NCBI GenBank assembly: GCA_963799775.1
Contig: CAWCYD010000003.1
Location: forward strand, 128,001 to 192,000
DNA from: an uncultured archaeon
GTDB lineage: Archaea; Thermoproteota; Nitrososphaeria; Nitrososphaerales; Gagatemarchaeaceae
Direction of reading: 5' to 3'
Length of the DNA: 64,000 nt
Below, piece by piece: positions 39,835 through 61,730 of the stretch (position 1 is its first letter; every line of letters begins with the position of its first letter). Made by a program: the position numbers and the translations under genes. The notes under the pieces were generated by a model that had not been told where the DNA came from, did no database searches, and was given only the letters and a program-made list of their open reading frames with translations.

Positions 39835-39844
39835 GAGGACGGAC

Positions 39845-43007: not shown

Positions 43008-43043
43008 AGCTTCGCCCGGGCAGCCCGTACTCCCAGCCCCTCA

Positions 43044-45959: not shown

Positions 45960-47347
45960 GCCCCCGCCTGCTGGGGAAGCTTCGCCGCCATCGTATCGGA
46001 TGCGGCGTTAGCGTTCATTTCCGGCGTCGCCGCAATATTGGCGGCCTTGCCGCTATCTGCCGCAATCCTAGGCCCCAAATCAATGGCGGCAATGAAGTCC
46101 TGAGGGGAGGCATATTCGCATCGTAGCAGGCTCTCCCATGCCCCCAAAATAATTCTCTCTCGGTCGAGCGTAGCTCCCTTCGAGCCCTCCATCACTTCGT
46201 AGATGTGAGATCCGTGGTACCCTTTCTCTTCTTTTCCCTCCGCGTCAGTCTTCGCTATGAGGACTTGCTTCTCTCGGAGCGAGGCGACGAGCTGCCGGAG
46301 GGTCCGGCTCGAATAGAGGTCGCTCTTACCCTCCTTCCTCGCGGCCTTGACGAGTTCTGGGGCCGTGAGCGGTTGCACCTTCACGGCGAGGTCAAGAAGC
46401 TCCTTCTCCTTGTCGGTCAGGCCGCCTAGTGTCTGGCGGAGATTGCTTCCCGCCTTCTCGAGGACCAACCAAAGGTCATCGATGCTCGCTACGATCTGCT
46501 TTTCGCCATCCGTCTCGATGATAGGCCGCTGCATGAAGTGGAGCTTCGCCGAGGCTTCGATGAGCCTAGAGAGCTTTTCGGTGTCGCGCCTGCTCGAGGG
46601 GCGGTCCTTCGGGATTATCGAGTCAAGGGACTCGGCGAACGGGGTAATGACCCGGAGCCTCTCCGTCTCCTCGAGAATACGCTCCATAGTCCATCGAGCG
46701 GCGCCTTGCTTGAGGAGATAGTCCGTGAACCTGCGTTGCGCTCTCTTCTTGAGCTTCGCCCTGACAACTTGCCCCGTGGTCTTCTCGTCATCGCGGATGT
46801 GCAGGACCGACAGCCTGTTGAGGAGCTCGGGAGGGACCCAGCGGCTTGACGTCAGGAGAAATTGGTCGACTTTGACGCGGCGCTCTACGCTTTCCATGCC
46901 GCCCTCTCCTTTCTTCGGAAAGAGGAGGACGAGTTCGCCTTCGCTGATGAGGAGCTTCATGTTAAACTGACTCGTGCTCTCTTCGTCTCCGGAGGGCCTG
47001 AGCTCCGCAAGGTATAGGGTGTGATAGAGCGCGTCTTCCTTCAGCCATCGGAGAGCGTTCTCCGTCATGTCACTTACTTTCCTCACCCAACCCACCGGCA
47101 TTATCGACGTGACCGCATCGACGAGGGAATTCTTCCCGCCCGAGCTGGCGCCGTCGACCAGGAGACTTTGACGGGCGACCATCTCTAGGATGAGCTGCGC
47201 GACGTTCTCATCCTCTCCCACCAAAAAGTCCTCTTTGGCGTCGGGCTTGCTCGCCGCCTCGAGAAGACGGTCGAGAATGTCCGGAGCCCGCAACCAGACT
47301 AGCGCCTCCCCGCGGGCAGGGTCGAGCTCGTCGGCCATCGAACTCAC
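45956..47347 (-). CDS. AAA+/MCM-like P-loop ATPase with C-terminal wHTH (putative element replication helicase)
   Basis: GASSGGKN (Walker A), LYLAE (Walker B), ELLNR (Arg finger), SRRD (sensor 2), ASIDD. Confidence 0.7.
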   Translation of the reverse strand: MSSMADELDPARGEALVWLRAPDILDRLLEAASKPDAKEDFLVGEDENVAQLILEMVARQSLLVDGASSGGKNSLVDAVTSIMPVGWVRKVSDMTENALRWLKEDALYHTLYLAELRPSGDEESTSQFNMKLLISEGELVLLFPKKGEGGMESVERRVKVDQFLLTSSRWVPPELLNRLSVLHIRDDEKTTGQVVRAKLKKRAQRRFTDYLLKQGAARWTMERILEETERLRVITPFAESLDSIIPKDRPSSRRDTEKLSRLIEASAKLHFMQRPIIETDGEKQIVASIDDLWLVLEKAGSNLRQTLGGLTDKEKELLDLAVKVQPLTAPELVKAARKEGKSDLYSSRTLRQLVASLREKQVLIAKTDAEGKEEKGYHGSHIYEVMEGSKGATLDRERIILGAWESLLRCEYASPQDFIAAIDLGPRIAADSGKAANIAATPEMNANAASDTMAAKLPQQAGA

Positions 47348-47597
47348 GTCAAAACTCCAGGGCCCCTTTGGATTTCACGAGGCAGAACGTGCTCTTTCGT
47401 CGAATGAGCTCGCGAGCCGCAAATCTCGCACGTCGTTTCTACCCTTGACTGGTTGACCGCGTATGCCGTGTCGGTGACGAATCTATCCACGGGACGCAGT
47501 CCAGCTTCGCTGCGAGCTTCACCCGTAGGCTTCACCCCAAGGGTGCCAAAAATGCGTGCCTGGGAAGACGCCAAGAAGCTTGCGGGTTTGCTGATTC

Positions 47598-48013
47598 CTA
47601 CAAAGAGGGCACAAGTCTTCGACAAACGGGTAATTGAAAATCTGCCTGCACTGCCCACACCTCTGCAGGTGCCCAAGTGTAGCCATTCTTGGAACCCTTC
47701 AAAAGGACTCCTTCGGCAACTTCTCTGTAAAGTCGTGCCCAAACCCGTCTTTCCTCGTCGCCTGCCTCGAGCTCTCTGAGCTTCGACAGGAGTTCTCGGT
47801 ATTCTTTCCCAATCTGGCGGATTTTGACCTTCAAAATGAAGTTCTTGTTGTTCTCGTATGTCAAGCCCGGTCTACTTCCATGCTCATATTGCGTTCGACC
47901 TGCATGAGGTGCCACAGCGGGTAACCGAGGCCGTCCGCCAGCTCGAACGACGAGATCTTCGCGAAGTATTTGGACGTTGGGAGCGGAATTGCCCGTTCGT
48001 TTCCCTTCGTCAT
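47598..48013 (-). CDS. Hypothetical protein (probable frameshift near 47868)
   Basis: ATG at 48013 (MTKGNERAIPLPTSKYF...) joins the frame of ORF 47598-47915. Confidence 0.4.
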
Positions 48014-48201
48014 GAGATTCTAGGCTCCGCTTGAATTCGGTTGCGTCCGGCCAAAATTCTGCCTCTGCAGCTCGAGCAGATCAGGACCGGCTCATTGTTG
48101 ACCAGGGCAGTATAGCAATTGCCGACATCGATGATTTCCCGTAGACATCTCGCGCATACTCGTGGAACCTCTTTAGTCGACTGCGAGGTCTGGCTTGACA
48201 T
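48010..48201 (-). CDS. Small Zn-finger protein
   Basis: CARC...CSSC; ATG lies 1 bp after the upstream stop. Confidence 0.55.
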   Translation of the reverse strand: MSSQTSQSTKEVPRVCARCLREIIDVGNCYTALVNNEPVLICSSCRGRILAGRNRIQAEPRIS

Positions 48202-48202
48202 A

Positions 48203-48367
48203 TCAATCACGATCTGTGTAGGAGTGTCGCTTGGTTGAGCGGCCCCATTCAAGGCGGCACTTGCACACTGGACAAACTTTCGGTCGCTGAAGCTTCGGCT
48301 GCCATTCGTAGTCGCAGTTCGGGCAAACCAATATCGTCTTGCGAGCTGTCTTCGATGCGACCTGCAT
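48203..48367 (-). CDS. 54-aa Zn-ribbon protein (absent from the ORF track)
   Basis: MQVASKTARKTILVCPNCDYEWQPKLQRPKVCPVCKCRLEW... Confidence 0.7.
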   Translation of the reverse strand: MQVASKTARKTILVCPNCDYEWQPKLQRPKVCPVCKCRLEWGRSTKRHSYTDRD

Positions 48368-48396
48368 GATTACCTCCACCGAAGAGGAGGTTTTAT

Positions 48397-48419
48397 TACC
48401 TGTCTAAACTGTACAGGTA
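48397..48419. promoter_or_regulatory. Inverted repeat in divergent promoter region
   Basis: TACCTGT-N9-ACAGGTA flanked by AT-rich TATA-like runs on both sides. Confidence 0.45.
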
Positions 48420-48433
48420 TAATATAGGCATAC

Positions 48434-49231
48434 ATGTCAAACAAGCCTAAATTGACACCTGTGCGAAAAGAGGGCATCGCGGACAGCGTAAGGATGGAAA
48501 CCCTCAAAGTTCTGGCAGAGGAAGGTGAAGTCTTTCAAAGCAAACTGATTAGCGCTGTGGCGAACCGGTTGGTCCTGGATCCAAACACCACAAGCGGGCT
48601 CGTCAGGAAATTCCTGGATAAGCAGAAGGGCGACCTCGTCAAGATTTCCAAATCGGCAAAAACGGGTTTTTTGGAAGGTCCGAGGAGGAAGTACTGGGAG
48701 CTAACAACTAATGGCATAGGATATCTGTATGGGGAAACACACGATCTCGCGGAACTTTCGAAAGTCATAACGAAGCTGCAGCCGCCGGAGTACGGAGGGA
48801 TGCTGGCAATCTACGAGACAATCGCAAGTAGCAAGAAGCTCTGCAAGGAAGTCGAACTCGACCTGAACATGTACTATGACGGACTAGCGAAGTCCGCTGA
48901 ATATCATAATATTGGCAAAAGACTTCAACGCGGACTACAAATCAAGGTCGACGTTGGGATTACGTACGACATAGGCGGAATCTTAATTGCATCTGTCATG
49001 CAGCACTTAGCCCAAGACAAGGATTTGAGAAGCGAGGTTGGGTATGTTAGGATCTCCAAAGTCTGCGAGTTTGCGGCTGCGCTTGCTCGGGATCAAGAAC
49101 AGAATCTAAAATCCTTCAAAAGCGTGATAAGAGTCATGAGAGGTTCAATGGAGTCACCCTCAAAAGTGCAGAATTCACGTTCCTTGTCCAGTCGTACAAA
49201 AGTGCCTCAGCCATCGAACGCCTCGGTCTAA
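48434..49231 (+). CDS. wHTH-domain protein (putative element repressor)
   Basis: TLKVLAEEGEVFQSKL..KYWELTTNG; divergent from the replication operon. Confidence 0.6.
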   Translation: MSNKPKLTPVRKEGIADSVRMETLKVLAEEGEVFQSKLISAVANRLVLDPNTTSGLVRKFLDKQKGDLVKISKSAKTGFLEGPRRKYWELTTNGIGYLYGETHDLAELSKVITKLQPPEYGGMLAIYETIASSKKLCKEVELDLNMYYDGLAKSAEYHNIGKRLQRGLQIKVDVGITYDIGGILIASVMQHLAQDKDLRSEVGYVRISKVCEFAAALARDQEQNLKSFKSVIRVMRGSMESPSKVQNSRSLSSRTKVPQPSNASV

Positions 49232-49317
49232 TCGAAGCATCGGGGGCTGAGCTATTTTTCACGAGGACTACCTCTTTGACGATAATTCAGCAAGAAAAAC
49301 GTTGACTGGGCTAATTT

Positions 49318-50694
49318 CTATCCGACTTCAGTTCTTCCGGTCTGATACGGGGCATTTCTGGGTCGACTTGCAAACCCTCTCCGATCAGCTTCCGTATCGC
49401 AGGATGACTCAAGAGGACAGTTCAATGCCTCGTCGTTCGCTCGCCTCTCCTCGCGCTCGGTCTGACTCGAGCGTTCCATGTCCGTGAGCCTCTGCTTGGT
49501 TTCGAGCAGCTCGATCCTCGTGTCCCGCAGCTTGACATCCTGCTCATCCTCTATCTTCTCGAGCTTCTGACTAAGCTGAGCTTCAGACCTGTAGGCCTCA
49601 CCGATGCTCAAGTACGGCATGGCTCTCAAGTATTGCTCTATAGCAGGCTTCGGGATGTGGCGATCATAATGTTCTTTGGTCCCCGTCGAATGTCCGATAA
49701 GTTTCTCGACGTACTCCTCGGCGATGTGGTCTTTGGAGACATTATCAAAGAACTTCCTCAATCCATGGCACGCCTGTACCTCGAAGCGCTTCGCTGACCC
49801 CTTCTGCCTCAGGCCGGCCTTCCAGCAAAGCCGGGTCACGTCGTTCCTTATCCCTGTGACGCTGTATCTCGTTTGCTTTCCCACAGCCCATCTCCGGGTT
49901 ACGATGAGAGGTGATTCCTCGGTGACTTTCTCGCCCTTTGCTCTCCGAGTTCCCAGGTACTCTTGGAACTTCAAAAAAGCTTCCTTCGAAATCAGCGTTT
50001 CGTACTCGTCGTCACCTTCGTCCGCGTACACAGTCACCTGTGCGCAGGCAAGATTCCCCTTAATCATGACGGGCTTGACATGCCCGACGTTGAGAAACTC
50101 AAAGGCTCCGACCCTCATCCCGGACGAGGCCATGAACAGGATTGCCACCTGCAGGTGGAGGGAAGCGACGGCCAGAAGTTTCTGGATCTCCTCGAACTTG
50201 TACTCTCTGTCCTTGCTCCTCTTCTCCGCGGGGAGCAGTCGCATCATCTTCTTCCACGGTATGGCGACCTCGTTCATCTCGAGGGCGAGCTTTATCGGTG
50301 TGAGGCGCCTCCTCACTTCAGCCGGGCCGAGCTCTCCCTTTGCGACCTTTTCGTTGAGCATGCGGATGAAGCGAAGGACGTCCACCTTCGCTTTCGTTGG
50401 GTCATTCACCGAGGCCTGGATCAGCTTGTACATCCCGTTGGTGGTTTCGGCTCTGGTCTGGTTAGCCAGATAGTCTGGGCCTCGGGTGTGGTGTATCTTC
50501 TTCGGGTCGGCGTATCCCGCGAACTCGAGGAACCAGCGCGAGTCCCGGAAGTAGTCCTGCTTCGTCCACCTGCTCTTGACGGACTCCCAAGGAAGTATCA
50601 AGGCCTCGTGCTGGGCGTCGCTGGGCATCGCCATAGCTACGGTCGAGGGTTCGAGTCGAGGGACTCCTGCGCCTATTGTCTCCTGGCCTGTCAT
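49318..50694 (-). CDS. int: Tyrosine recombinase/integrase (C-terminus probably affected by a frameshift)
   Basis: SSGMRVG (Arg), HGLRKFF (HxxR), LIGH and EHY (Tyr). Confidence 0.93.
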   Translation of the reverse strand: MTGQETIGAGVPRLEPSTVAMAMPSDAQHEALILPWESVKSRWTKQDYFRDSRWFLEFAGYADPKKIHHTRGPDYLANQTRAETTNGMYKLIQASVNDPTKAKVDVLRFIRMLNEKVAKGELGPAEVRRRLTPIKLALEMNEVAIPWKKMMRLLPAEKRSKDREYKFEEIQKLLAVASLHLQVAILFMASSGMRVGAFEFLNVGHVKPVMIKGNLACAQVTVYADEGDDEYETLISKEAFLKFQEYLGTRRAKGEKVTEESPLIVTRRWAVGKQTRYSVTGIRNDVTRLCWKAGLRQKGSAKRFEVQACHGLRKFFDNVSKDHIAEEYVEKLIGHSTGTKEHYDRHIPKPAIEQYLRAMPYLSIGEAYRSEAQLSQKLEKIEDEQDVKLRDTRIELLETKQRLTDMERSSQTEREERRANDEALNCPLESSCDTEADRRGFASRPRNAPYQTGRTEVG

Positions 50695-50736
50695 TGCTTC
50701 CGTCTCCCTGAATTTGGGTAGAAGTATTTAGTCATG

Positions 50737-50761
50737 AATGAAGCGGCGTCGGGCCGACTCG
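50737..50761. repeat. att direct repeat overlapping the tRNA-Asn 3' end
   Basis: Identical to 33097-33121. Confidence 0.93.
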
Positions 50762-50865
50762 AACGGCCGACCAACTGGTTAACAGCCAGTTGCTTTTGGT
50801 AAGCTCTTCATTAGAGTTCTACCATGCCCCCCGGCATTTTTTGGATGCCTCTGAGCTACGACGCC
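50744..50865 (-). tRNA. tRNA-Asn(GTT) with two D-arm introns (about 25 nt at 15/16-16/17; 24 nt at 22/23)
   Basis: GGCGTCG/CGACGCC-G acceptor, ACTGG-CTGTTAA-CCAGT anticodon arm, GGCCG-TTCGAGT-CGGCC T-arm; BHB-like helix TGGT/ACCA. Confidence 0.88.
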
Positions 50866-51035
50866 AGATATCGAACCTGCCTCCGATGCGAACGCTATAT
50901 GAAATTAACTAGTCTACATGACTGAGACCTCCTTCGGGCGGGGAGGGCATTGTGCAACCTTCCGGGTCCCTTGTAATTTCGGGAGGCCACTCTGGTGAGG
51001 ATAATCCTAACAGTAACCGTATATCTCAGCGATGA

Positions 51036-51986
51036 TTGGAACGGACAAGGTGGCTGAATTTGGACAAAATAACCGTGAAGAACTCGTACATCCCTTGGTC
51101 TTTCCTTGACATCGTCGCAAGAGAAGACGGCATCTTTGCCAAGCGAAACTTGGATGTCGACCTGTTCTCGATAGCGAGCAAAGACGTGGAACCCGCCGAC
51201 AAGGTAGCGTGGTATTCAAACATGGTCAGAGACGGCATGCTGGATGCCTACTCGGTCTGCGCGTGGGGTGCAATCGACAGGCTCGCAGAGACCAAGCGCG
51301 AGAAGATCCTCGCGGCGTCCACCTCCTCGGGATACGCGTTCTCGATATTGGTAGCCCCGGGATTGGGGATAAAGACCGCCGCGGACCTCGCAGAGATTCC
51401 CATCGCGGTGAACATGAAGACGGGGTCGCATTATTGCATCCTGAGCGACCTCGAGAGGGTCCTTCCTTACAGCAAGATCAAAGTCGTGCACGGCGCCGAG
51501 CCCTCGAGCAGGCTCAGGGGGCTGTTGGAGGAGAAGTTCCAGGCCATAGCCCTCATCAGCCCGTACACCGAACTCGCTGTCCAGCTAGGATTCGTGAAGG
51601 TGGCCGAGACAAAGACGGTCGACGTCCTGGCGTTCGTGGCGAGGGACGACCTCCCGACAGGAGTGCTGACAAGGTACCTGGCCTCCCTGGACGAAGCGGC
51701 CAGGAAGCTCAGGGCGAACCCGGAGAACTACAGGGCCCTCTACGTCGAGACCTTCCGGGCGACTTTTCGAGGCTTCCCCGAGGAATGGAAGAGCAGGATA
51801 AACAAGCTCATCGACAAGATCGCAGCGACGATCCCGATCACCACGTGGAGTGAGCTGGCCGAGTACCCGAAGGAGTCGTTCAACTCCCTTAGCACGTGGA
51901 TGAGCAAGCACAACCTCCTGGAGGCGAACGTTCAGTACGAGAACCTCGTCTTGAACAAACCTCTCGAGAAGGTCTCTACCAGCTAG
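51036..51986 (+). CDS. NMT1/SsuA/THI5-like binding-protein-fold protein with no signal peptide
   Basis: VAREDGIFAKRNLDV, IKTAADLA..IAV..GS, SPYTELA; YSVCAWG. Confidence 0.75.
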   Translation: MERTRWLNLDKITVKNSYIPWSFLDIVAREDGIFAKRNLDVDLFSIASKDVEPADKVAWYSNMVRDGMLDAYSVCAWGAIDRLAETKREKILAASTSSGYAFSILVAPGLGIKTAADLAEIPIAVNMKTGSHYCILSDLERVLPYSKIKVVHGAEPSSRLRGLLEEKFQAIALISPYTELAVQLGFVKVAETKTVDVLAFVARDDLPTGVLTRYLASLDEAARKLRANPENYRALYVETFRATFRGFPEEWKSRINKLIDKIAATIPITTWSELAEYPKESFNSLSTWMSKHNLLEANVQYENLVLNKPLEKVSTS

Positions 51987-52931
51987 GTGGGTGGCAGGTC
52001 GTTGCCGCAGAGGCTGACCACTATAACGCACGGGTATTACCAACCGTACTTCTACTGGATGTTCCCCATCTTGGTCGCCAGGGAGGAAGGCCTCTTCGAG
52101 GAGGAAGGAATCGCCCTTGACGTGCACGACATCGTTCCCGGCGGCCAGCCGGAGAACAAGGCCGAGTGGTATAGGGAGGCGCTCGAGCAAGGTTCGCGCG
52201 ACTTTTACTTCTGCTGCGCTTGGCAGGGCGTCTACAGCACATGCGAGACCGGGAAGGGCAAGATCGGTGCCGCGATCAAGTCGACGCTCATCAAGACGTT
52301 CGGAATCTACACCAAGCCTGACTCGCCCGTCCGCAACATCTTAGACATCACAGAGAACGGCGTCGAGATCGCCGTCAACAAGAACGCGGACGCGCACTAT
52401 GTGACCCTCGAGAATCTCGCAGAGTTCGTCCCTGCGTCGCAGGTCAGGCTCAAGCACCTAGGTGGGATCGACAGCTGCTTCAAAGCTCTGGCAAACGGGG
52501 ATGTCAAGGCTGCGACGCTGGCCGGGCCGTACGCGGAGGCAGCAGAGGCCATAGGCTACAGGAGGGTCATGGCGCTTTCCAGGACGCAGCCCACCCTAAT
52601 AGTCTTCAACGACGCGGTGGACACGCCCGCCGCCAACTCTTTCCTCGCGGCCGTCAACAAGGCTGTTCACAGAGTGAACGCAGACAGACCCAGGTACCAC
52701 GCGAGGTATGTGAAAGAATTCGAGGAGGTCGTGAACAGGTACATCCCAGAGCTGAGGAACGAACTGCCGAAGGTGAAGGCGAGGATAAGCCTACCTGCCT
52801 GGGCGGAGACAAAGATTCTCAGCGAGGCAGACTTCAACGAGGTCCGCGACTTCCTGGTCGAGCACGGGCTCTCCGCGAAAGGCAACGGCTACGCGGGGAC
52901 CGTCAAGACGACCCTGGCCATCTCACACTAG
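51987..52931 (+). CDS. NMT1/SsuA/THI5-like binding-protein-fold protein (paralogue) with no signal peptide
   Basis: VAREEGLFEEEGIAL, LANGDVKAATLAGPY; FCCAWQG. Confidence 0.75.
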   Translation: MGGRSLPQRLTTITHGYYQPYFYWMFPILVAREEGLFEEEGIALDVHDIVPGGQPENKAEWYREALEQGSRDFYFCCAWQGVYSTCETGKGKIGAAIKSTLIKTFGIYTKPDSPVRNILDITENGVEIAVNKNADAHYVTLENLAEFVPASQVRLKHLGGIDSCFKALANGDVKAATLAGPYAEAAEAIGYRRVMALSRTQPTLIVFNDAVDTPAANSFLAAVNKAVHRVNADRPRYHARYVKEFEEVVNRYIPELRNELPKVKARISLPAWAETKILSEADFNEVRDFLVEHGLSAKGNGYAGTVKTTLAISH

Positions 52932-52950
52932 AGGTGCGATGTGAACCCAC

Positions 52951-54330
52951 ATGGTCACAAGACTGGAGCGAGCGATCGAGATTCCAAGGCAATGGTATAA
53001 CATCGCGCCGGACCTTCCAAGCAAGCTCCCGCCCGTGATAGACCAGCATACGCATGGACTGGCTGACAAGAAGATACTCCACAGGCTCTTCGTAAACGAG
53101 GTCGCAAGGGGAGAGTATTCGGGCGAGCGGTTCATCACCATCCCGGAGGAACTTAGAGACGTCTATTCGATCTGGAGGCCGACTCCTCTCGTGAGGGCGA
53201 AGAGGCTGGAAAGGGCGCTGAACACGCCTGCGAGGATCTACTACAAGAACGAGTCCGTGAGCCCGCCCGGGTCGCACAAGGCCAACGCCGCCGTGGCACA
53301 GGCTTACTATGCGAAGAAGGAAGGAACTGAGAGGCTAGTCACGAGCACCACCGCCGGCCAGTGGGGGACCGCCCTCGCCTTCGGTTGCACGATCTTCGGA
53401 GTAAAGTGCACCGTCTACATGTCAAAGTCCAGCTACGACAGCAAGCCCTATCGCAAGGATCTCGCCGAGGCCTGGGGCGCCGAGGTAATCTCGAGCCCCA
53501 GCGCGAAGACAAAGGTCGGGAGGGACATCCTAGCGCGAGACCCGAACTCGAGCGGGTCGATGAGCATCGCGAAGAGCGAGGCCCTGGAGGACACCGAGAA
53601 CGACCCGACCGCCAAGGACGCGGTCGGCAGCATCATGAATTTCGTCTTGGCGACCCAGACGGTGATAGGCCAAGAGGCTCAGGCGCAGATGGAGCCATAT
53701 GAGGACTATCCGGACATCGTGATCGGCTGCGTCGGCGGAGGGAGCAACTTCTCAGGGATATTCTGGCCCTACTATTACAAAATGGTCAGCAAGACGAGCC
53801 CGAAGCAGGTCAGGTTCCTCGGTGTCGAGTCATCGGCCGTCCCGAAGCTCACGAAGGGTCGATACATGTACGACCACTCCGATGTGATGAGGATGAGCCC
53901 GCTCTTCAAGATGTACACCGCAGGCTCGACGTTTGTGCCGCCGGAGATCCACACCGGCGGTCTAAGGGTCCATGGGACGGCTCCCAGCCTGAGCCTGCTC
54001 GTGAACGCGGGAATGGTGAGCGCCGTCGCCTACAGCCAGCCAGAGGTCTTCGAGGCGGGCGCGCTATTCGCGCGGACGGAGGGGATACTGCCCGCCCCCG
54101 AGTCGGCCCACGCGATAAAGGCGACAATCGACGAGGCCAGGCGATGCAAGCAGCAAGGCAAGGAGGAGGTCATCCTCTTCAACCTTTGCGGCCACGGCAT
54201 CCTGGACATCGAGGGATATCGCGAGTACTTCGCGGGCAAGATGAAGGACAACGACGCCGACCCGGCGGAGCTGAGAAGAGCCCTCGACGAGGTGAAGGGG
54301 TTGTACCCTTGGTTGCAGGGCAACGGCTAG
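52951..54330 (+). CDS. trpB2: TrpB2-like PLP enzyme with altered active site
   Basis: WYNI, RPTPL, GSHK (PLP Lys), GCVGGGSN and PAPESAHA; TSTTAGQWG replaces TETGAGQWG. Confidence 0.88.
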   Translation: MVTRLERAIEIPRQWYNIAPDLPSKLPPVIDQHTHGLADKKILHRLFVNEVARGEYSGERFITIPEELRDVYSIWRPTPLVRAKRLERALNTPARIYYKNESVSPPGSHKANAAVAQAYYAKKEGTERLVTSTTAGQWGTALAFGCTIFGVKCTVYMSKSSYDSKPYRKDLAEAWGAEVISSPSAKTKVGRDILARDPNSSGSMSIAKSEALEDTENDPTAKDAVGSIMNFVLATQTVIGQEAQAQMEPYEDYPDIVIGCVGGGSNFSGIFWPYYYKMVSKTSPKQVRFLGVESSAVPKLTKGRYMYDHSDVMRMSPLFKMYTAGSTFVPPEIHTGGLRVHGTAPSLSLLVNAGMVSAVAYSQPEVFEAGALFARTEGILPAPESAHAIKATIDEARRCKQQGKEEVILFNLCGHGILDIEGYREYFAGKMKDNDADPAELRRALDEVKGLYPWLQGNG

Positions 54331-54364
54331 GCAACGCGACACACGCCCTAGGTTGAGGCATACA

Positions 54365-55196
54365 ATGACCAAGCGACGACCTCTCTCCTACGGCGAGTAT
54401 CTCGGGCTGGACGAGCTGCTCGACATCCAACGGCTTGTCTCCAAGCCCCGGCAGCACGACGAGGTGCTCTTCCTTATCGCCCATCAGGCCTACGAGCTCT
54501 GGTTCAAGCTCATGCTCAACGAGCTGGAGACCGCGATCTCTCACATGCTCGCAGACAACCTGTCAGAAGCCACGCGGCTCATCAGGAGGGTCGTCCCCGT
54601 ACAGAGGGCCCTGATCCAGCAGCTCGAGGTGCCTGGAGACGATCAGGCCCTCAGACTTTCTGAAGTTCAGGAGCATTCTCAACCCCGCCAGCGGCTTCCA
54701 GTCCCTCCAGTTCAGGGAGCTGGAGTTCATCTCCGGTCAGAAGGACGAAAGATACCTCAAGCTCCACGTCGGGAACGAGAAGGACTACGAGCAGCTGCTG
54801 AAGAGGTGGGAGGCCCCAAGCCTCTGGGACGGCTTCAGGAGCGTTTTGGAGGAGCGGGGGTTCGATTTGGGGAAGAAGGCGAAGGGGAATGAGAATGCCG
54901 TCTTCGAGCTCGAGGTCGAGGCCTCGCTCAAGATCTTCACGGAGAGCAAGTACCTGCACGTGGCGGAGCTTGCGGAGGTGTTGCTCGACTACGACAAGCA
55001 TTTCCAGCTGTGGCGGAGCCACCACATCATGATGGTGGAACGAGTAATAGGCGGTAGGCCGGGGACGGGCGAGAAGGTGGTCAACAAGACCGTCGGCACC
55101 GACTCGTTCCATTCCTCTGGCGTGACCTATCTCCAGACCACGATGGGAAAGAGGTTCTTCCCCGCGCTATGGGCTGCAAGGACAAGGATAGGATGA
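54365..55196 (+). CDS. kynA: Tryptophan 2,3-dioxygenase-family heme enzyme; frameshift near 54631
   Basis: HDEVLFLIAHQAYELWFK, (shifted frame) FRSILNPASGFQSLQFR, WRSHHIMMVERVIG, FFPALW. Confidence 0.88.
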
Positions 55197-56068
55197 CACG
55201 GAAGCGGGGGATGAGACTCCATCATGTCTCGGCAAAGGTGCGCGCGAGGATCGCAGCGGGCGACTCGATATATGAAGGATGGGGGGCGAACCAGGGGTTC
55301 GTCACGACGAGCATTGGGGCTGTCGTCGTTGACACGGGCTTCACTTCGACGTCCGCCAAGGCCCTCCTGCGGGACCTGCGCGCGACAGGGTCCGCTCCTG
55401 TGAAGCTGATCGTGAACACGCACGACCACTCCGACCACGTCTTCGGGAACTCCGTCTTCGACGCATACTCTCCTCTCATCATGGCTCACCTAAACTGCAG
55501 GTCTAGGCTCCTGGAGCTGGGCAAAGAACGGATGCGCGGATACCGCAGGTTCGACAAAACACTGAGGGCGGACCTCACGGGGCTCCGCATCTCGCCCCCG
55601 CAGGTGACCTACGAGGACGGGTTGGAACTGGACATCGGGCAGACCAATTTCCGTTTCATCCACCCAAAGAACGGGGCGCACACGACAGGCGACACGATGG
55701 TCCTCCTCCCCGATGAAAAGATCCTCTTCGCGGGGGACGTCTTGTGGACGGGCTACCACCCCAACCTCGAGGACGCAGACATAGAGGCCTGGCTACAGGA
55801 GCTCGATGCTATCTCGAGGATGAAGGTGGACCTGATCGTCCCGGGACACGGGAAGGTCTCGGACAAGAGCAGCGTCGCTCCGCTCGCGACCTACCTTCGC
55901 GAGTTTGACTCTAGGATGAGCAAGCTCGTCCGGGATGGCGTCCCCAAGGCGAGCATCCTCCCGGAGCTCGAGATCCGTGGTTCGGAGGAATGGAGCCTGA
56001 AGATGATCGTCCAGCGCAACTTGGACATCCTTTACGACCGATACGTAGCCCGCGAGCGCGCCGTCTGA
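55169..56068 (+). CDS. Metallo-beta-lactamase-fold hydrolase
   Basis: VVDTG, THDHSDH, AHTTGD, FAGD, VPGHG. Confidence 0.9.
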   Translation: MGCKDKDRMTRKRGMRLHHVSAKVRARIAAGDSIYEGWGANQGFVTTSIGAVVVDTGFTSTSAKALLRDLRATGSAPVKLIVNTHDHSDHVFGNSVFDAYSPLIMAHLNCRSRLLELGKERMRGYRRFDKTLRADLTGLRISPPQVTYEDGLELDIGQTNFRFIHPKNGAHTTGDTMVLLPDEKILFAGDVLWTGYHPNLEDADIEAWLQELDAISRMKVDLIVPGHGKVSDKSSVAPLATYLREFDSRMSKLVRDGVPKASILPELEIRGSEEWSLKMIVQRNLDILYDRYVARERAV

Positions 56069-56104
56069 CAGGAGGTTCATGGGAGACCTAGCTTGATGAA
56101 GGTG

Positions 56105-57032
56105 TCAAGAGTGTCGGGGAGCGTCTCGAGGTCCCTGCGCGTCGGGGTGGAAGGTGGTCTTTGGGCTGTACTCTACCTCGAAGGGATAAGCCGCCTTTAT
56201 CCCCGGCATCGAAGGCGATATCCCCGAGATCCTCCCGATCAACCTCTGCGCGTCCTCGCTCAGAAGGAAGTCCATGAACTTGCGTGCCGACTTGTTATCG
56301 CTCGCCGTCTTTAGCAGCGCCGCTGTTGTGAAGGTGAGCATCCGGGGGATCTTCTCGGTCTCGAACGACCTGACCGGGGAGCCAGCCGTCCTCTCGCGGA
56401 AGTAGGCAAGTGAGTACACCGTAAGTGAGAGGTCGTGGTCCCCGTCGATGAGCCCCTGGAGCAGGTGGTCAATGCAGTCGTAGGTCAGAGGCTTGTTCGG
56501 GCCCGCCAAGCTCCTCAGGAGCTCGCGCCATTTCTTCCCGGACGTTTTCCTCTTGAGGAAGTTCATGTAGTGGGCGCCGATGTTGCCGAACTTGCTCGTA
56601 GTGAGCGACTGCATCCCGAGCCTTCCCCTCCACTTGCTCGAGATTATCTCATCGAGGCTTTGAGGGAGGTCACTTTGCGGAGAGATTCTTGGGGTTGTGC
56701 GCCATCGTCATGAAGGTCACGCCTGCAGCGAACCATCTCATCCTCCTATCGTAGAACTTCTGCGGGTACGCTCCGATGCCCTTCGCATCGTGCGGAGCAA
56801 ACAGGCCCTCCTTGTCCATGTTGATGGCAACGTAGTGCGGGACGATGACTACGTCCGCAGTCCGCATCCCGTGCTTCATCTCCTGCCGAATCCTGTCCTG
56901 GACCTGGAATGGGTGGTCGTCCAGGTAGACAGGGAACTCCTCCAGGGTGTTCTTCTTCCTGAATGCCCACAGGAGGTCTGAGGTGCCCGAACGAAGCCCC
57001 AACGACGCGTAGATTATCACCCTCTCAGGCAT
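56105..57032 (-). CDS. Iron/thiamine-type binding-protein-fold protein with no signal peptide; frameshift near 56665
   Basis: RIRQE..ADVV, FAPH, MAHN, ARKFMDFLLSEDAQ. Confidence 0.7.
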
Positions 57033-57056
57033 TCGAGTTCCTCGGCGGGGCGCGAG

Positions 57057-58209
57057 TTATTTATCGGTTGAACGGCCGTGCTCGAAGAATTCCTTCACGC
57101 GTCGGACCCCCTCGACTATCGTCTCAGGCGGGCTCCCGAAGGATATTCGGAGGTGACCCTCTCCGGCTGGCCCAAAGATCGCTCCTGGCAGGAGCGCGAC
57201 GTTCTGCTCTTTGAGCATCCGCGTCGCTAGGGATCTCGAGCCTTCCCTGCCCTTGAACCCGGGGAAGCCGTAGAAGGCTCCTTCCACTGGTTCCCACTCC
57301 AGGGCCTTGATGCCTGATAGCTCCTCCTGAAGGATGCCTCTCCGTCGCCTCAACTCCTCCCTGAACTCCTTTGTGTAGTTCTGGCAGTTCTTCAGCGCAT
57401 AGGCCGAAGCCACCTGGATGAAGGGAGGGAAGCATGTCACTGCGGTCTCGAGGAACCTGTTGACCAAGAGGATGGTCCCGGCGTCTGCCACGACATATCC
57501 CGCACGCCAGCCGGTCATGGCGAAGCTCTTCGAGAGACTGAAGATTGAGACGACCGTCTCAGGCCTCTTCTCGAGCGAGCCGACCGATGTGTGCTTCTTC
57601 TCGTAGACGAGGTTCCTCGTAGGCCTCGTCGCTGACCAACCTCACGCCTCTCTCGATGCAGAGCTGAAGCAACTCTTTGAGCTCGCTCTTCTCGAAGACC
57701 TTGCCAGCCGGATTCGAAGGGGTGTTGACGATCATCGCCCTCGTCTTTGGCGTGATCTTGGCCTTGATTTCGTCGAGGTCCAGTCGGAAGTCCTTTGTGA
57801 GCCGATACCTCACGGGCTTTCCCCCAGACAAGACGACCGGTTCGGAGTAGTAGTAGCCGGGGTCCGGGACCAGGGCCTCGTGACCCTTCATCCCGAGCGA
57901 TAGCAGGGTGGCGTAGATGGACAGCTTGGTCGTGATGAAGATCGAGTTTTCCTTTTTCGCCATGATGCGGTTCTTACGCTGGACCTTCTCTACGATTGCC
58001 TCCCTCACCTCATCCAAGCCCCAAGAGGTGGTGTAGTGCCCTCCGCCGCTCCTCATGCTCTCGTACGCTGCCCTCACTATGGGGGGAGGAGTGTCGAAAG
58101 AAGGCTCGCCTATCGAGAGGGAGAAGACCTTCTCTCCTGCGGCCCTCTTACTAGCGGCCAGGTTGAAGATCTCGAAGGCTGGCGAGTCTTGTATCTCGTC
58201 TAGGGACAC
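57057..58209 (-). CDS. Class I/II PLP aminotransferase; frameshift near 57612
   Basis: SIGEPSF, NTPSNPAG, SDEAY, SLSKSFAMTGWRAG, GAFY, LRISF. Confidence 0.92.
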
Positions 58210-58349
58210 GCCGACCCGCGTGTCCTATTCGGGATTTAAGCGGTGCGAGGGCTGGTGCCGAAGGCAGCCCTTCCCGACTCGCAAATGCCAGCTGTAGAAC
58301 GAGGAAAGTGAACAAATGTAAAGCAATTCAGTGAATATCTTTATATCGC

Positions 58350-58712
58350 ATGCAGCCAATAGTCTCGTCTACGCGATTGAAGAAGATCGAAGCTGCGGTG
58401 CGCAAAGACAAGTTCCCTGATGTCGATCTTGCTCTGAAGATGATCGGTGTCTCAGGCCTCACGGTAGCTGAGGAGGAGCGGGCATCCAGAGGGATGTGGT
58501 CCTATCCGCTCGAGAAGATCCCGCACATGATCGTCACAGTCGTAGTGGACGACCGAGACGTGGGCCAGGTCGTGGATTCGATCCGCGAGACCGCCTCGAC
58601 CAGGTCATCGGGCGACGGCAGGATCGTGGTCACCTCAATAGACAACGCCTGGGACATCGGGACAGGCATGCCTGACCGGACGGACCTTTCCGTCCCTTCG
58701 CTCGGATTCTAG
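58350..58712 (+). CDS. PII-family signalling protein with short T-loop
   Basis: KKIEAAVR, IGVSGLTV, GDGRIVV, DIGTG. Confidence 0.8.
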   Translation: MQPIVSSTRLKKIEAAVRKDKFPDVDLALKMIGVSGLTVAEEERASRGMWSYPLEKIPHMIVTVVVDDRDVGQVVDSIRETASTRSSGDGRIVVTSIDNAWDIGTGMPDRTDLSVPSLGF

Positions 58713-58740
58713 AAGGACCGGTCTTTCCGCTTTTTTTCTT
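58712..58740 (+). terminator. Short hairpin and oligo-T after the PII gene
   Basis: GAAGGAC-CG-GTCTTTC followed by TTTTTTT. Confidence 0.35.
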
Positions 58741-58987
58741 AGGAAGGCTTTGTAGTCCCGCTGGCCTTGTACTTTGCGAACAGGGCGATGAGCCCCGCCA
58801 GCATTAGCATCACTGAGCACAGGTAGAGGACAGGGATGAGGGGTGGCTGGATCGTGTCGACGCCCGCCTCGACGGCGGTCTCATAGATCATAGCGAACCC
58901 GAGCACGAAGAACACGACTCCGCAAAGCCTGACCACGACGTTCACCCTGGAGTCGTCGGGGTTGTAGGTGCCTTGGGTGTTGCTCAT
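58739..58987 (-). CDS. Small two-TM membrane protein
   Basis: Two hydrophobic helices. Confidence 0.6.
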   Translation of the reverse strand: MSNTQGTYNPDDSRVNVVVRLCGVVFFVLGFAMIYETAVEAGVDTIQPPLIPVLYLCSVMLMLAGLIALFAKYKASGTTKPS

Positions 58988-59056
58988 CCGCCTGACCTTT
59001 TTTGGTTCCGAACTCTGCCCTAAATAAGCTATCCAGTCGGGCGGCGGAGTCGCGAC

Positions 59057-60154
59057 CTAGGCGCTCTTCAGGAGCTGGATCTTGTCAGGCAGGTACTTGT
59101 CGACGATGTAGCTGAGGCCGTATCGGGAGAACGCCTCCTGCTCGCTCTTCCGCTTGAACTTCAGGAACGTGTCCAGCTCGTCGTGCCACAGCTTCTCCTT
59201 GTAGCGGGGGTCCGCCTTGAGCTCGTATACCCGCTTGATGTCTATCTCGGTGAGAGGGTCTGAGGGGAGCTTGTACTTTTGGATGTCCGAGGCCCAGACC
59301 CCGAGCCACACCCCCGACGGGGTGGTCAGGTCTCTCAGGTGGGCGGCGTTCGCGGAGCCGCTTTTTATGACCATGGCGATGTGCGCCCCCCACGGGTCGG
59401 CGTCGCAGAGGATCCCGATGGGAAGCTTAAGCTCCGAGTGGAGCCGCCTCAAGAGGTAGCGGGTTGCGCGGGGAGGCTGCCCCGCGGTGTTGATCAGGAT
59501 CGCCTTGTACTTCTTGTGGACCTTCTCCTCGATGAACCTGGTGAAGAGACCGCCCTTCTCTATCGCGAGGACCATCTCCGCGTCTGTGTCCGCGAACTCC
59601 GCGGTCGTCATGGCGGGGCCTATCATCATCCCGTCCGGATGGGCCGAGAGGTCCAGCGTCTTCCCTTCGTATCCCGGGACGGTGTACTCGATCGTGAGGT
59701 TCCCGAATATGGCGCTCCTCTCTTCAGGATAGACGTTGAACTCCTCCCTCGCAGAGCCTAGGAGCACCTCCAGGTCGGTTATCAGCTCGTCGGACTCGGC
59801 CTGGTCCATGAACTCGACGTTGAAGGCCTGCGCCGAGTAGTAGACGTCTCTCAGCGTGGATGTCTTTTTCTCGGCGACCAGCTGCTTCGAGAAGTAGGCC
59901 AGCCAGAGGAGCTGTGTGAACGGCCTGATGTGCTTGATGTTCCCCGCGGACCGTTTGACCGTCGAGGAGCCCAGGATGAACTGCTGGAGCTTCTTGTCGT
60001 AAACGATGTTGCTCACAGAGCGGCTCGCGAAGCTCACGGACGGGAACCTCGAGCTGTCCAGGTCGTTGTAGACGCGGTGCCCGAGCTCGTTGAGGATCTT
60101 CTCGACCCTGTCTTTCCTGGCCTCAGCTGTAGTCTTCGATTTTTGCTTGCTCAT
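59057..60154 (-). CDS. top6A: DNA topoisomerase VI subunit A
   Basis: STLRDVYY, AIEK, GQPPRATR, DADPWG, EQEA. Confidence 0.96.
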   Translation of the reverse strand: MSKQKSKTTAEARKDRVEKILNELGHRVYNDLDSSRFPSVSFASRSVSNIVYDKKLQQFILGSSTVKRSAGNIKHIRPFTQLLWLAYFSKQLVAEKKTSTLRDVYYSAQAFNVEFMDQAESDELITDLEVLLGSAREEFNVYPEERSAIFGNLTIEYTVPGYEGKTLDLSAHPDGMMIGPAMTTAEFADTDAEMVLAIEKGGLFTRFIEEKVHKKYKAILINTAGQPPRATRYLLRRLHSELKLPIGILCDADPWGAHIAMVIKSGSANAAHLRDLTTPSGVWLGVWASDIQKYKLPSDPLTEIDIKRVYELKADPRYKEKLWHDELDTFLKFKRKSEQEAFSRYGLSYIVDKYLPDKIQLLKSA

Positions 60155-61730
60155 GCTTGCTATTCACGCTACCACTACCGCCGACCTCGACGACAACTTC
60201 CTGCGCGGCCTGCTCCTCGGCGACCGCCGCCGCCTCGTCCTGGATGAGCTGCTTGTACTTTGGCAGCTTCTTCTCTCCGGCGAGCTCCTGCGAGAACTTT
60301 GCGATCAGCGGGAGGTACTTGCCGTAGATGTTCATCTTCCTCTGGACGGCCTCCATGCTCCCCTTCTTCGAGAGGTAGAGGCTGAGCCTCCTGAGGGCCT
60401 CGCGGACCGCGTTCCTGATCTCGGCCTCGATCTCGGGCCTGTCCGCGATGTACTCCTTGCCCACGGTCTTGTAGGGCACCTTCGTGGAGCAGATGTGGGT
60501 GATCACGGCCACGGGCGCCTCGTCCGGGACGTGGTACCTCCTCCAGTCTATCTCCTCGTTCATGACCTTGAACGAGACGTCGCTGCTCTCGTCGTATAGC
60601 AGGGGTATCCTGTTGGCGAACCTGAAGAGCTTCCTTCCCGGCTCGAGCGTCTTTCCTCCGTAGACCAGCCCGACCTCGACGAGGAACGGGAATCCCGAGT
60701 AGGACGAAGGGGGCCTGACGACGACGGTCGAGAACTCAGGCTCTAGCTCCTTGAGGATACCGGTGCTGAGTATCTGCTCCCCCACGGGAGAGAGGCACGA
60801 AGAATCGGGCGGCAGGAATTCCGTGAACCTTTGGAGAGCATCAACAATCGTCACGACCTGCTCGTTGGTGAGCTTCTCTGGGGCGATGTCCGGCCTGACA
60901 CCGGCGAACTCGAGGAACTTGACGGCGGTCCTGTCCCCTACCCTGTGGAAGTGCGTCGTCATGAATCGCTTTAGCGTCTTCTCCTCGTTCAGCTTCACCA
61001 TCCTCTTGAACGCCTCCACGTCCACGCCGTACGGATGGGGGAGCGTCTCCTTGGGAGAGGGTGGGATCTCCTCTGTGGCCCTCTCGTAGGTCGATATCCT
61101 CCCTATCGGGTCGACGAACGTGAGATTGGCGTATGACCCGACAAGGGCGGTCTGCTTGAAGTACTCGTTGATCTTCTGCGCCGAGCGGGTGAAGTCACCC
61201 TCCAGGACGACGTCGACGCGTGTCCCCGTCTTCCCGTTCGCCTCCTCGGTGTCCCTCCTGAGGATTATCGGCTTGTTCTCGCCGATGTCGATGAGCATCT
61301 CGAAGATATGCCTGCTCTTCCCGTCCACCGACGTCGTTATCTTGACCGGCTTGTTCGTCGTGATCTGGCCGTAGAGGACGGCCATCGTCCCTCCCATCCC
61401 GAACATGCCTCGTGACTGGCGCAGCACGTACTTGGACCCGTAGAATACCTTCCCAAAGGCCCTTGGCACGTGGTGGGGGTCGACTCCAGGGCCGTTGTCC
61501 GCGACCGTCACGCGATACGCCCTCGGCTCCGATGTCTCGGTCCCGTGACCCTCCGCGACTATCCTGACGTAGATGTCGGGCAGCAACCCGGCGAGCTCGC
61601 ACGCATCGAGAGAGTTCTCGACGAGCTCCCTGACGGCCATATAGAGGGCCCTCGCAGGGTTCGTGAAGCCTGCGAGGTCGCGATTACGATAGAAAAACTC
61701 GGATGGCGAAATCTCTGAGAACGTCACCAT
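60123..61730 (-). CDS. top6B: DNA topoisomerase VI subunit B
   Basis: ELVENSLDA, DNGPG, QSRGMFGMG, RFANRIPL. Confidence 0.96.
   Translation of the reverse strand: MVTFSEISPSEFFYRNRDLAGFTNPARALYMAVRELVENSLDACELAGLLPDIYVRIVAEGHGTETSEPRAYRVTVADNGPGVDPHHVPRAFGKVFYGSKYVLRQSRGMFGMGGTMAVLYGQITTNKPVKITTSVDGKSRHIFEMLIDIGENKPIILRRDTEEANGKTGTRVDVVLEGDFTRSAQKINEYFKQTALVGSYANLTFVDPIGRISTYERATEEIPPSPKETLPHPYGVDVEAFKRMVKLNEEKTLKRFMTTHFHRVGDRTAVKFLEFAGVRPDIAPEKLTNEQVVTIVDALQRFTEFLPPDSSCLSPVGEQILSTGILKELEPEFSTVVVRPPSSYSGFPFLVEVGLVYGGKTLEPGRKLFRFANRIPLLYDESSDVSFKVMNEEIDWRRYHVPDEAPVAVITHICSTKVPYKTVGKEYIADRPEIEAEIRNAVREALRRLSLYLSKKGSMEAVQRKMNIYGKYLPLIAKFSQELAGEKKLPKYKQLIQDEAAAVAEEQAAQEVVVEVGGSGSVNSKHEQAKIEDYS

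Follow-up and report, generated by a model that had tools for sequence, protein, structure and literature searches.

The question raised by the locus analysed here is what an uncultured archaeon makes with a variant tryptophan synthase beta subunit and a tryptophan 2,3-dioxygenase (TDO) whose genes lie side by side. The locus is a cluster of seven genes at positions 51,036 to 58,209 of the window, by which we mean the whole analysed stretch of 64,000 nucleotides (nt) from a member of the Gagatemarchaeaceae (Nitrososphaerales; GenBank assembly GCA_963799775.1, contig CAWCYD010000003.1, positions 128,001 to 192,000). Five plus-strand genes converge on two minus-strand genes with intergenic gaps of 0-36 nt, and encode two binding-fold proteins (NMT1a and NMT1b), the pyridoxal phosphate (PLP) enzyme TrpB2v, TDO, a metallo-beta-lactamase-fold (MBL) hydrolase, a third binding-fold protein and an aminotransferase (Table 1). 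An original prediction, made from the sequence alone, had proposed these genes as a pathway of aromatic amino acids; open reading frames (ORFs) and Pfam matches agree that all seven are real, and that trpA, kynU and genes for an ABC permease or ATPase are absent from the cluster. Each protein of the module falls in a known superfamily. Judged from sequence and conservation, the cluster is an intact, conserved module for a predicted cytoplasmic pathway of non-ammonia-oxidising soil Thaumarchaeota. For its chemistry we tentatively favour a reading in which TDO would open ordinary tryptophan and TrpB2v would alkylate a non-indole, probably anionic, kynurenine-type nucleophile.

The module is conserved in three genomic contexts

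We refer to the source genome, a three-contig assembly with a marker completeness of 81.7%, as G000 and to a closed genome of the same genus as G007; other G and L numbers denote compared genomes and loci. Topoisomerase VI A and B, encoded further along the window, identify the source as an archaeon, and the closest named homologs are from Thaumarchaeota and Nitrososphaerales metagenome-assembled genomes. Of 40 relatives, 9 have intact frames (277-316 aa) that match the C-terminal piece of TDO and, in the 20 kb around TDO, the module genes were found together in nine other genomes and in three unrelated flanking contexts. The order in seven congeners is NMT1a-NMT1b-TrpB2-TDO-[MBL]-binding protein-aminotransferase-P-II-small ORF-Top6A-Top6B; G037 and G023 carry the same core in reshuffled form, flanked in one by genes for rRNA methylases and ribosomal proteins and in the other by primase, GINS and exosome genes. 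Among 41 relatives, 10 have TDO, and TrpB2v, at an identity of at least 72%, occurs in these 10 and no others. L045, a short Nitrososphaerales contig, reads binding protein-NMT1b-NMT1a-TrpB2-TDO. The P-II gene lies beside the module in L011-L017 and is absent from L018 and L019.

Metagenome contigs yielded 31 loci with a TDO of this clade (49-95% identity). Of the 26 loci that extend at least 300 nt upstream, 25 have TrpB2v immediately upstream of TDO, on the same strand and 0-42 nt away; of the 21 with sufficient downstream sequence, 9 have MBL as the next gene after TDO. The divergent metagenome loci gave no additional conserved neighbours; genes for an Fe-ADH, a TnpB-like protein and oligopeptide ABC ATPases were seen there. 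In the next TDO clade (39-47% identity, GC 0.64-0.68), partner genes were found in none of 49 loci, and TDO adjoins purine genes or, in L193, kynureninase. Similarly, none of 73 canonical TrpB2 loci contained genes for TDO, an NMT1-like protein or the binding protein. Because the same genes are co-located in nine other genomes, in L045 and in 31 metagenome loci, their arrangement is evidently not due to chance, and the co-conservation on which the original prediction hinged is borne out.

The module is rare: TDO was detected in 14 of 61 genomes of the family and, in a class-wide sample of 401 genomes, in 3, with none among 301 genomes of the two largest families. The module-bearing congeners are those nearest to G000 by Top6B identity.

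In the divergent metagenome locus L142, the gene that follows TDO is a TnpB/Cas12f-like ORF (1492-2799, plus strand). Moreover, G017 has a DUF922 ORF between the binding-protein and aminotransferase genes (L014 11389-12105, minus strand), which is not at that place in G000.

TrpB2v lacks the indole-activating glutamate

The G017 ortholog of TrpB2v (90% identical) scored 613 bits against the TrpB2 profile NF009057 (cut-off 366) and 560.7 bits against TIGR01415 (cut-off 518.85), and TrpB2v of G000 matched TrpB2a of Saccharolobus solfataricus (PDB 6hul) over its full length (E 5.7e-123). TrpB2v retains the PLP lysine (GSHKAN); by contrast, the motif ETGAGQ[WH]G, which holds the indole-activating glutamate, is replaced by STTAGQWG. 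Among the 120 best homologs, 72 have ETGAGQWG, 38 STTAGQWG and 9 NTTAGQWG, while one has no motif. The serine and asparagine (S/N) forms are all among the close homologs, from approximately 60% identity, and the glutamate (E) forms are more distant. The S/N clade was monophyletic (24 of 24 sampled sequences; support 0.947), and the S/N motif was present in 20 of 20 metagenome loci in which the motif lies on the contig.

Other positions are also fixed differently in the S/N and E groups, i.e. P111A, G134T, L204M, I208K, H231F and Y340V. Based on an alignment of the motif GS.L..A.[SN]EA to TrpB1 and on the residue numbering of PfTrpB, we take positions 204 and 208 to be L161 and I165 of PfTrpB and position 340 to be Y301; all three would then line the indole subsite. 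The net change to the pocket would be the loss of one negative charge, the gain of one positive charge and more room. TrpB2v is the most conserved protein of the module, with 89.5-92.4% identity within the genus.

The original prediction had left it to be seen whether the genome holds a separate canonical trpB. It does: G000 encodes TrpB1, adjoining trpA, as well as a canonical TrpB2 (ETGAGQWG, GSHKPN and GGLRYHG), both of which retain the glutamate. Because the genome has these two proteins, TrpB2v is a third, specialised paralogue. TrpB2v is predicted to be unable to activate indole in the usual way, and its remodelled nucleophile site makes a non-standard nucleophile likely, as had been suggested.

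TDO has an essentially canonical pocket

TDO matched the Xanthomonas campestris enzyme XcTDO (PDB 2nw7) over its full length (E 5.7e-46), and an intact ortholog scored 164.6 bits against Pfam PF03301 (cut-off 34.9). The XcTDO residues that are kept include the proximal His240 and distal His55 as well as Phe51, Arg117, Leu120, Ser124, Gly125, Thr254, Tyr24, Tyr27 and Leu28; the two pieces into which the gene is split in G000 bear the same haem and tryptophan residues as the intact orthologs. The pocket substitutions relative to XcTDO are Y113F and S123A, and human TDO has Phe and Ala at these positions as well. In total, the pocket is essentially canonical for L-tryptophan. TDO is probably a real tryptophan, or near-tryptophan, dioxygenase. 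The earlier claim that both core enzymes show active-site changes holds for TrpB2v, in which the catalytic glutamate has become serine; in TDO the changes are mild, i.e. the two substitutions and a 13-residue lid insertion.

In profile searches of G000, which is 81.7% complete, kynureninase (TIGR01814) gave no match and no kynB-type formamidase (TIGR03035) was found above the cut-off, the best score being 48.7 bits vs 223, on another contig. The genome as a whole is in this respect as the cluster had been described.

Binding-fold proteins, MBL and aminotransferase

NMT1a and NMT1b are 27% identical, and NMT1a orthologs are 74-85% identical within the genus. The NMT1 family counts only 62 database proteins, all in this clade. 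Against SsuA_fam (cut-off 163.5) the NMT1 pair scored 33.2 bits, for the G017 ortholog of NMT1a, and 28.3 bits. Among PDB sequences, a profile of NMT1a/b matched SsuA and no other (E 2.3e-4), and the ESM Atlas returned only generic NMT1 'ABC substrate-binding' clusters. With an AlphaFold2 (AF2) model of NMT1a (pLDDT 93), the best Foldseek matches were ThiY (3ix1), TauA (6ssy) and SsuA (3ksx) with TM scores of 0.70-0.74; lower matches included Thi5 and DszB (TM 0.57-0.62) and also PqqT, which binds pyrroloquinoline quinone (PQQ). K56, C75, N126, H152 and many aromatic residues are invariant in both paralogues. In all orthologs, the N termini of NMT1a and NMT1b begin directly at the first strand, leaving no signal peptide, and none of the three contexts has an ABC permease or ATPase gene within the module. 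Thi5 has a Lys followed by a His at +4; we considered Thi5-like suicide chemistry for NMT1a/b and rejected it, as their conserved Lys has no His at +4.

The third binding-fold protein resembles ferric-binding proteins (E 4e-13). Iron binding by this FbpA-like protein was rejected, as one of the two ligand tyrosines aligns and the other does not (Y195 is replaced by V).

The best family match of MBL was TIGR04559 (SoxH-related 'quinoprotein relay' hydrolases) with 137.9 bits vs a cut-off of 280, and MBL was above the cut-off for no named beta-lactamase or SoxH-related family. MBL orthologs begin to align at residue 15-20, and translation probably starts from the ATG at 55211. MBL had been proposed as the deformylase of the pathway. 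Because it is present in just 4 of 10 genomes (G000, G020, G037 and G023) and adjoins TDO downstream in just 9 of 21 metagenome loci, it cannot be an obligatory one.

The intact ortholog of the aminotransferase scored 182.4 bits against PF00155, and the PLP lysine lies in SLSKSF (SxSK) in both G000 and the ortholog. The best PDB match was the aromatic aminotransferase of Pyrococcus (1dju; E 7.7e-68).

A tentative cleave-then-alkylate pathway

In the favoured reading, the TDO-family haem enzyme would open the indole ring of L-tryptophan to give N-formylkynurenine, which would be deformylated by the MBL-fold hydrolase where this is present, and otherwise spontaneously or by another amidase. The aromatic-type aminotransferase would lead to kynurenine or kynurenate-type (quinoline-carboxylate) products. 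TrpB2v would still form the PLP-aminoacrylate from serine or O-phosphoserine, and would transfer it not to indole but to a larger nucleophile, probably an anion or an amine, that stems from the TDO branch, yielding a new compound that bears a 2-amino-2-carboxyethyl group. Finally, the three binding-fold proteins, which have no signal peptides, may hold or pass on aromatic anions. What the sequences show directly is which genes are present, that they are conserved together, that the catalytic Glu is gone and that TDO has a canonical pocket; the substrates, the order of the steps and the roles of the binding-fold proteins are what we infer from the genes and their residues.

The argument for this order lies in the two pockets: because that of TDO is canonical and that of TrpB2v is remodelled, TDO probably takes ordinary tryptophan and TrpB2v a non-indole. 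The most economical source of the nucleophile would be the TDO branch itself, i.e. the arylamine of kynurenine or a kynurenate-type quinoline carboxylate, and the Glu to Ser/Asn and Ile to Lys changes would suit such an anion.

Several observations weigh against this pathway. The cleave-then-alkylate order depends on the single argument from the canonical TDO and remodelled TrpB2 pockets, and the HMMER alignment of TrpB2v to TrpB1 is unreliable around the stretch used to map positions 204, 208 and 340. The lid insertion of TDO, which follows Thr254-Gly255, is conserved and contains Lys and Arg, and the ortholog scored 218.9 bits vs a cut-off of 390.7 for the equivalog family TIGR03036; on both counts, the substrate of TDO could differ from tryptophan. 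G018, the closest relative by Top6B, keeps only MBL and the aminotransferase at the syntenic site (L236, G018:C2:172000-191900, 14305-16376); NMT1a, NMT1b, TrpB2v, TDO and the binding protein were found neither in the 20 kb at this site nor elsewhere in that genome. Moreover, the aminotransferase was not found within 10 kb of the module in G037. Because of their patchy presence and because G018 keeps both without the core, MBL and the aminotransferase may not be dedicated steps.

Lastly, the invariant order of TrpB2v and TDO fits equally well with the make-then-cleave route of the original prediction, in which TrpB2v would join serine or phosphoserine to a substituted indole or another aromatic nucleophile, TDO would open the product, and MBL and the aminotransferase would finish it. 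We consider this route possible, if doubtful. In its favour are the short gaps between the two genes (0-42 nt), their strict co-occurrence, the remodelled nucleophile site of TrpB2v, the clade-specific, Lys/Arg-rich lid insertion of TDO and the TDO score below the equivalog cut-off. However, the residues of XcTDO that contact tryptophan are conserved save for Y113F and S123A, which is hard to square with a substrate whose nucleophile differs enough to have cost TrpB2v its Glu and brought in a Lys. With a TDO pocket that is essentially canonical for L-tryptophan, make-then-cleave is weakened, and cleave-then-alkylate fits at least as well.

Rather unlikely, in our estimate, is a chemistry outside tryptophan and kynurenine, for instance one of aromatic sulfonates or sulfinates bound by SsuA/TauA/DszB-like proteins, in which the product of TrpB2v would be an S- or N-substituted alanine and some other aromatic amino acid would be oxidised by the 'TDO'. 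The fold of NMT1a, closest to the sulfonate binders SsuA and TauA and matched also by the cytoplasmic enzymes Thi5 and DszB, would fit such a chemistry, as would the Cys, His and Lys that are invariant in both NMT1 paralogues and the pocket of TrpB2v, which gains a Lys and loses a Glu. By contrast, TDO retains the full set of tryptophan-binding residues, and no other feature of the module suggests sulfur chemistry.

The family assignments by themselves, together with the aromatic-type aminotransferase and the canonical TDO pocket, could also be read as plain indole salvage and tryptophan catabolism, in which indole and serine would give tryptophan, N-formylkynurenine, kynurenine and kynurenate in turn, and indole would be detoxified or assimilated. 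We regard this as improbable: the catalytic glutamate is replaced across the clade (in all 47 S/N close homologs and all 20 metagenome loci with the motif), G000 already encodes both TrpB1-TrpA and a canonical TrpB2, kynureninase was not found in the genome, and serine would be spent on a dead-end product.

Co-occurrence with a PqqC-like gene

A PqqC-like gene of G000 (224.7 bits vs a cut-off of 240) adjoins some of the ten matches to PQQ-type beta-propellers in this genome. Among five genomes that carry PqqC, PqqB and PqqD were found in none and PqqE was never above the cut-off. In the family sample (61 genomes), 11 genomes have both TDO and the PqqC-like gene, 3 have TDO only (G023, G432 and G438), 1 has the PqqC-like gene only (G018) and 46 have neither, i.e. 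the PqqC-like gene is present in 11 of 14 genomes with TDO vs 1 of 47 without. In the class sample (401 genomes), 3 have both, none TDO only, 5 the PqqC-like gene only and 393 neither, which places all 3 TDO genomes among the 8 with the PqqC-like gene. The genomes in these counts are kin and not independent, and represent approximately 3 to 5 lineages. At the level of clades, the PqqC-like gene is thus distributed much as the TDO module is. A cluster of PQQ-type beta-propeller dehydrogenase genes, several of them apparently split by frameshifts, was observed together with the PqqC-like gene at G000:C3:1080000-1113500 (L205 covers 1104001-1122000).

The substrate of PqqC, AHQQ, is a quinoline dicarboxylate with a 2-amino-2-carboxyethyl group. 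The module might conceivably be a non-ribosomal route to a PqqC-type substrate that feeds the orphan PqqC-like enzyme and leads to PQQ or a PQQ-like cofactor, an idea that we rate as quite improbable. In such a route tryptophan would become a quinoline-carboxylate through the action of TDO followed by deformylation and transamination, TrpB2v, having lost its Glu and gained a Lys, would attach the 2-amino-2-carboxyethyl side chain, and the PqqC-like enzyme would close and oxidise the product for the many PQQ-type dehydrogenases. Against this, the module and the PqqC-like gene are not physically linked, G438 (98% complete) has TDO and no PqqC-like gene, and G018, G367, G374, G402, G073 and G090 have the PqqC-like gene without TDO; in addition, kynurenate has a 4-OH where PQQ has a carboxylate. 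If true, this route could bear on the supply of cofactor in archaea that have many PQQ-type dehydrogenases and just a pqqC-like gene. Passages of a study of this archaeal family (PMC10640624) describe many PQQ-dependent dehydrogenases and name, of the genes for PQQ biosynthesis, only pqqC, and the words tryptophan and kynurenine are absent from its main text.

Three gene breaks are most likely assembly errors

Three frameshifts in module genes had escaped the original prediction. The genes for TDO, the FbpA-like binding-fold protein and the aminotransferase are each split, at 54632, 56672 and 57612, respectively, by the insertion of exactly one base. On either side of each break the frames are open and conserved out to the ends of the orthologs, and relatives have single-frame versions of all three genes: the intact G017 ortholog of the binding protein is 317 aa long, an intact ortholog of the aminotransferase 379 aa, and intact TDO orthologs 276-284 aa. 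When the DNA was aligned to that of seven to nine relatives, most of these were found to have AGGWCCT at the site that holds the extra base; with the extra base in brackets, the contexts are AGGT[G]CCT in TDO, AGG[A]ACCT in the aminotransferase and AG[T]GACCT in the binding protein.

To assess reading frames genome-wide, we set a 400-kb portion of the closed congener G007 against all of G000, which gave 61 orthologs of at least 200 aa. Frame changes relative to the G007 orthologs were present in 19 of these 61 conserved genes (31%) of G000, with 30 junctions per 28,161 aa, mostly net +1 and several inside genes for more than 1,100 aa. Of the 30 junction windows, 14 contained AGGWCCT in a form with one inserted base, vs 1.19 expected from random windows. 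Moreover, intact AGGWCCT has a density of 0.118/kb in G000, 0.485/kb in G007 and 0.746/kb in congener loci, a 4-6-fold depletion in G000, and over the span of the cluster G000 has none vs 3-9 in five congeners. Among G000 segments aligned to AGGWCCT sites of G007, 19 of 116 (16.4%) carry an insertion; the palindromes TGGWCCA (0 of 22), ACCWGGT (0 of 32) and AGCWGCT (0 of 50) carry none, while the palindromes TCCWGGA (5 of 67), AGGSCCT (4 of 68), CGGWCCG (2 of 25) and GAGWCTC (1 of 13) carry some. The insertion error is enriched at AGGWCCT and is not restricted to it. Because relatives are intact, 19 of 61 genes are likewise hit and insertions are enriched at AGGWCCT, the three breaks are most likely systematic assembly errors and not gene decay. 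A possible cause is that a methylated palindrome is misread by the long-read basecaller; AGGWCCT corresponds to the recognition site of a known restriction enzyme. The completeness of 81.7% in a three-contig assembly is consistent with frequent insertion errors.

Other observations count against an artefact or do not bear on it. GG/CC palindromes other than AGGWCCT also gain insertions, at 6-9%, 292 intact AGGWCCT sites are left in G000 genome-wide, and the two sites beside the 23S rRNA gene, the only two in the aligned stretch, are intact. Public reads, from a low-depth soil run (X1) that holds 21% of the sampled words, gave no coverage of the three break sites. One-insertion 8-mers of AGGWCCT are not raised genome-wide (0.94/kb in G000 vs 1.0-1.25 in relatives), because these 36 words are common anyway.

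We considered GGWCC as the error motif and rejected it, as it is mildly depleted only and the clearly depleted form is the 7-mer AGGWCCT. Programmed +1 frameshifting or quadruplet decoding was also rejected: the inserted base (G, A or T) and its place in the palindrome vary, and very long genes are hit repeatedly. That the cluster is decaying in this strain, with genuine pseudogenes for TDO, the binding protein and the aminotransferase, as three frameshifts inside 3 kb, the integrated mobile element immediately upstream and the loss of the core genes in the close relative G018 might suggest, is very improbable given that each gene has a single extra base in otherwise open and highly conserved frames, that the defect is common to 31% of conserved genes, very long ones included, as well as to trpA, and that it is tied to a palindromic DNA motif. 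For users of the G000 assembly, a spurious insertion of a single base approximately every 3 kb of coding sequence means that calls of split genes and pseudogenes need checking.

The only X1 record near 54632 is a divergent contig of a related strain, in which 54561 is followed by 54636 and 74 nt across the TDO break are missing. Elsewhere in G000, trpA (C3:240116-240887) is split too. In the window, a gene for an HtrA-like protease (26815-27706, minus strand) is seemingly split into Trypsin_2 and PDZ ORFs, and a MetW-like ORF (12881-13327, plus strand) spans just 130 of 193 profile positions; both are probably further cases of the insertion artefact.

Features of the locus and its surroundings

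The features of the cluster and its neighbours are collected in Table 1.

Table 1. Module genes and neighbours by position in the window, and the PqqC-like gene of G000
Feature	Position	Strand	Details
NMT1a	51036..51986	+	316 aa; no Pfam match; cytoplasmic NMT1/SsuA fold (periplasmic-binding-protein fold), no signal peptide
NMT1b	51987..52931	+	314 aa; NMT1 17.3 bits vs cut-off 20.5; paralogue of NMT1a, same fold, no signal peptide
TrpB2v, TrpB2-family PLP enzyme	52951..54330	+	459 aa; PALP 152.5 bits; GSHKAN; STTAGQWG in place of ETGAGQWG
TDO-family haem enzyme	54353..55196	+	Pieces 54353-54631 and 54633-55196; Trp_dioxygenase 66.2 and 42.7 bits
MBL-fold hydrolase	55169..56068	+	Lactamase_B 80.7 bits (cut-off 22.7); HDHSDH motif; optional module member
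FbpA/HitA-like binding-fold protein, cytoplasmic (SBP_bac_6/11)	56105..57032	-	Pieces 57032-56673 and 56671-56105; SBP_bac_11
Class I aminotransferase	57057..58209	-	Pieces 58209-57613 and 57611-57057; Aminotran_1_2
P-II-like small protein	58350..58712	+	P-II 45.5 bits; neighbour conserved within genus only; probably outside core
Topoisomerase VI A and B	59057-61730		Pfam
Orphan PqqC-like gene	G000 C3:1112736-1113407		

An exact 25-nt direct repeat lies at 33097-33121 and 50737-50761 and matches the 3' end of a tRNA-like gene. The repeat brackets 17.6 kb that contain an integrase-like gene (49318-50694), a type III restriction-modification pair (34302-38631), Fic and Mrr_N, many ORFs without a family and a low-GC stretch; positions 33097-50761 are probably an integrated mobile element that ends just upstream of the module. 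An Rfam scan of 47500-59500 found a partial tRNA only (50752-50805, minus strand, model positions 9-63, 33 bits), and ARAGORN gave no tRNA there. A stretch resembling the 5' half of a tRNA lies approximately 50 nt upstream of the partial tRNA, and the gene perhaps extends to approximately 50866; it may contain an intron or an assembly error. Finally, a 479-aa ORF at 20016-21455 (plus strand) has a Tubulin_2 match (57.5 bits), i.e. a tubulin-like GTPase in an archaeon.

Relation to known systems

Our search of published work, which covered listings and abstracts, found no account of a natural Glu-less TrpB2 clade, an obligate pairing with a TDO clade or a cytoplasmic trio of binding-fold proteins. 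TrpB homologs examined outside the S/N clade keep the indole-activating glutamate; here, a whole natural clade has lost it, as engineers remove it by design. TrpB2v can be tested directly as a source of new PLP chemistry that forms C-C or C-N bonds, and the module is a lead to an aromatic metabolite of abundant, uncultured soil archaea.

The NMT1/SsuA/TauA/ThiY importer proteins share their fold with NMT1a, as judged by Foldseek on the AF2 model. NMT1a and NMT1b differ from them in that the sequence match is below the cut-off, signal peptides and ABC partners are lacking, and the two form a tandem paralogue pair confined to this module.

With the bacterial kynurenine pathway kynA-kynB-kynU (2nw7), the module shares a TDO that has the haem ligand His240 as well as His55, Arg117 and Thr254. 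It differs in having an optional MBL-fold protein in the place of the formamidase and a TDO with a 13-residue lid insertion. Biosynthesis of quinolobactin includes a TDO/formamidase/aminotransferase part, and as in the kynurenine and quinolobactin pathways an aminotransferase accompanies TDO in the module.

Within the TrpB2 family (TrpB2a, 6hul; TrpB2i, 4qys and 6hte), TrpB2v shares the PLP lysine, the GGGSN phosphate loop and the overall length; it differs by the Glu to Ser/Asn change, GSHKPN to GSHKAN, GGLRYHG to GGLRVHG, I208K, L204M and H231F, and is consistently paired with TDO instead of standing alone or with trp genes. The TrpB2a and TrpB2i enzymes of S. solfataricus were reportedly shown by Busch et al. 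in 2014 to be O-phosphoserine-dependent tryptophan synthases.

Like the engineered enzymes, TrpB2v is without the indole-activating glutamate. Engineered TrpB proteins lacking this residue include PfTrpB E104G and the 'tyrosine synthase' TmTyrS1 (PDB 8egy), and its removal opens the site to non-indole nucleophiles, a key step to synthases of amino acids other than tryptophan. In contrast to these designs, TrpB2v belongs to a natural, monophyletic and conserved clade of TrpB2, not TrpB1, with additional changes in the pocket and dedicated genomic partners.

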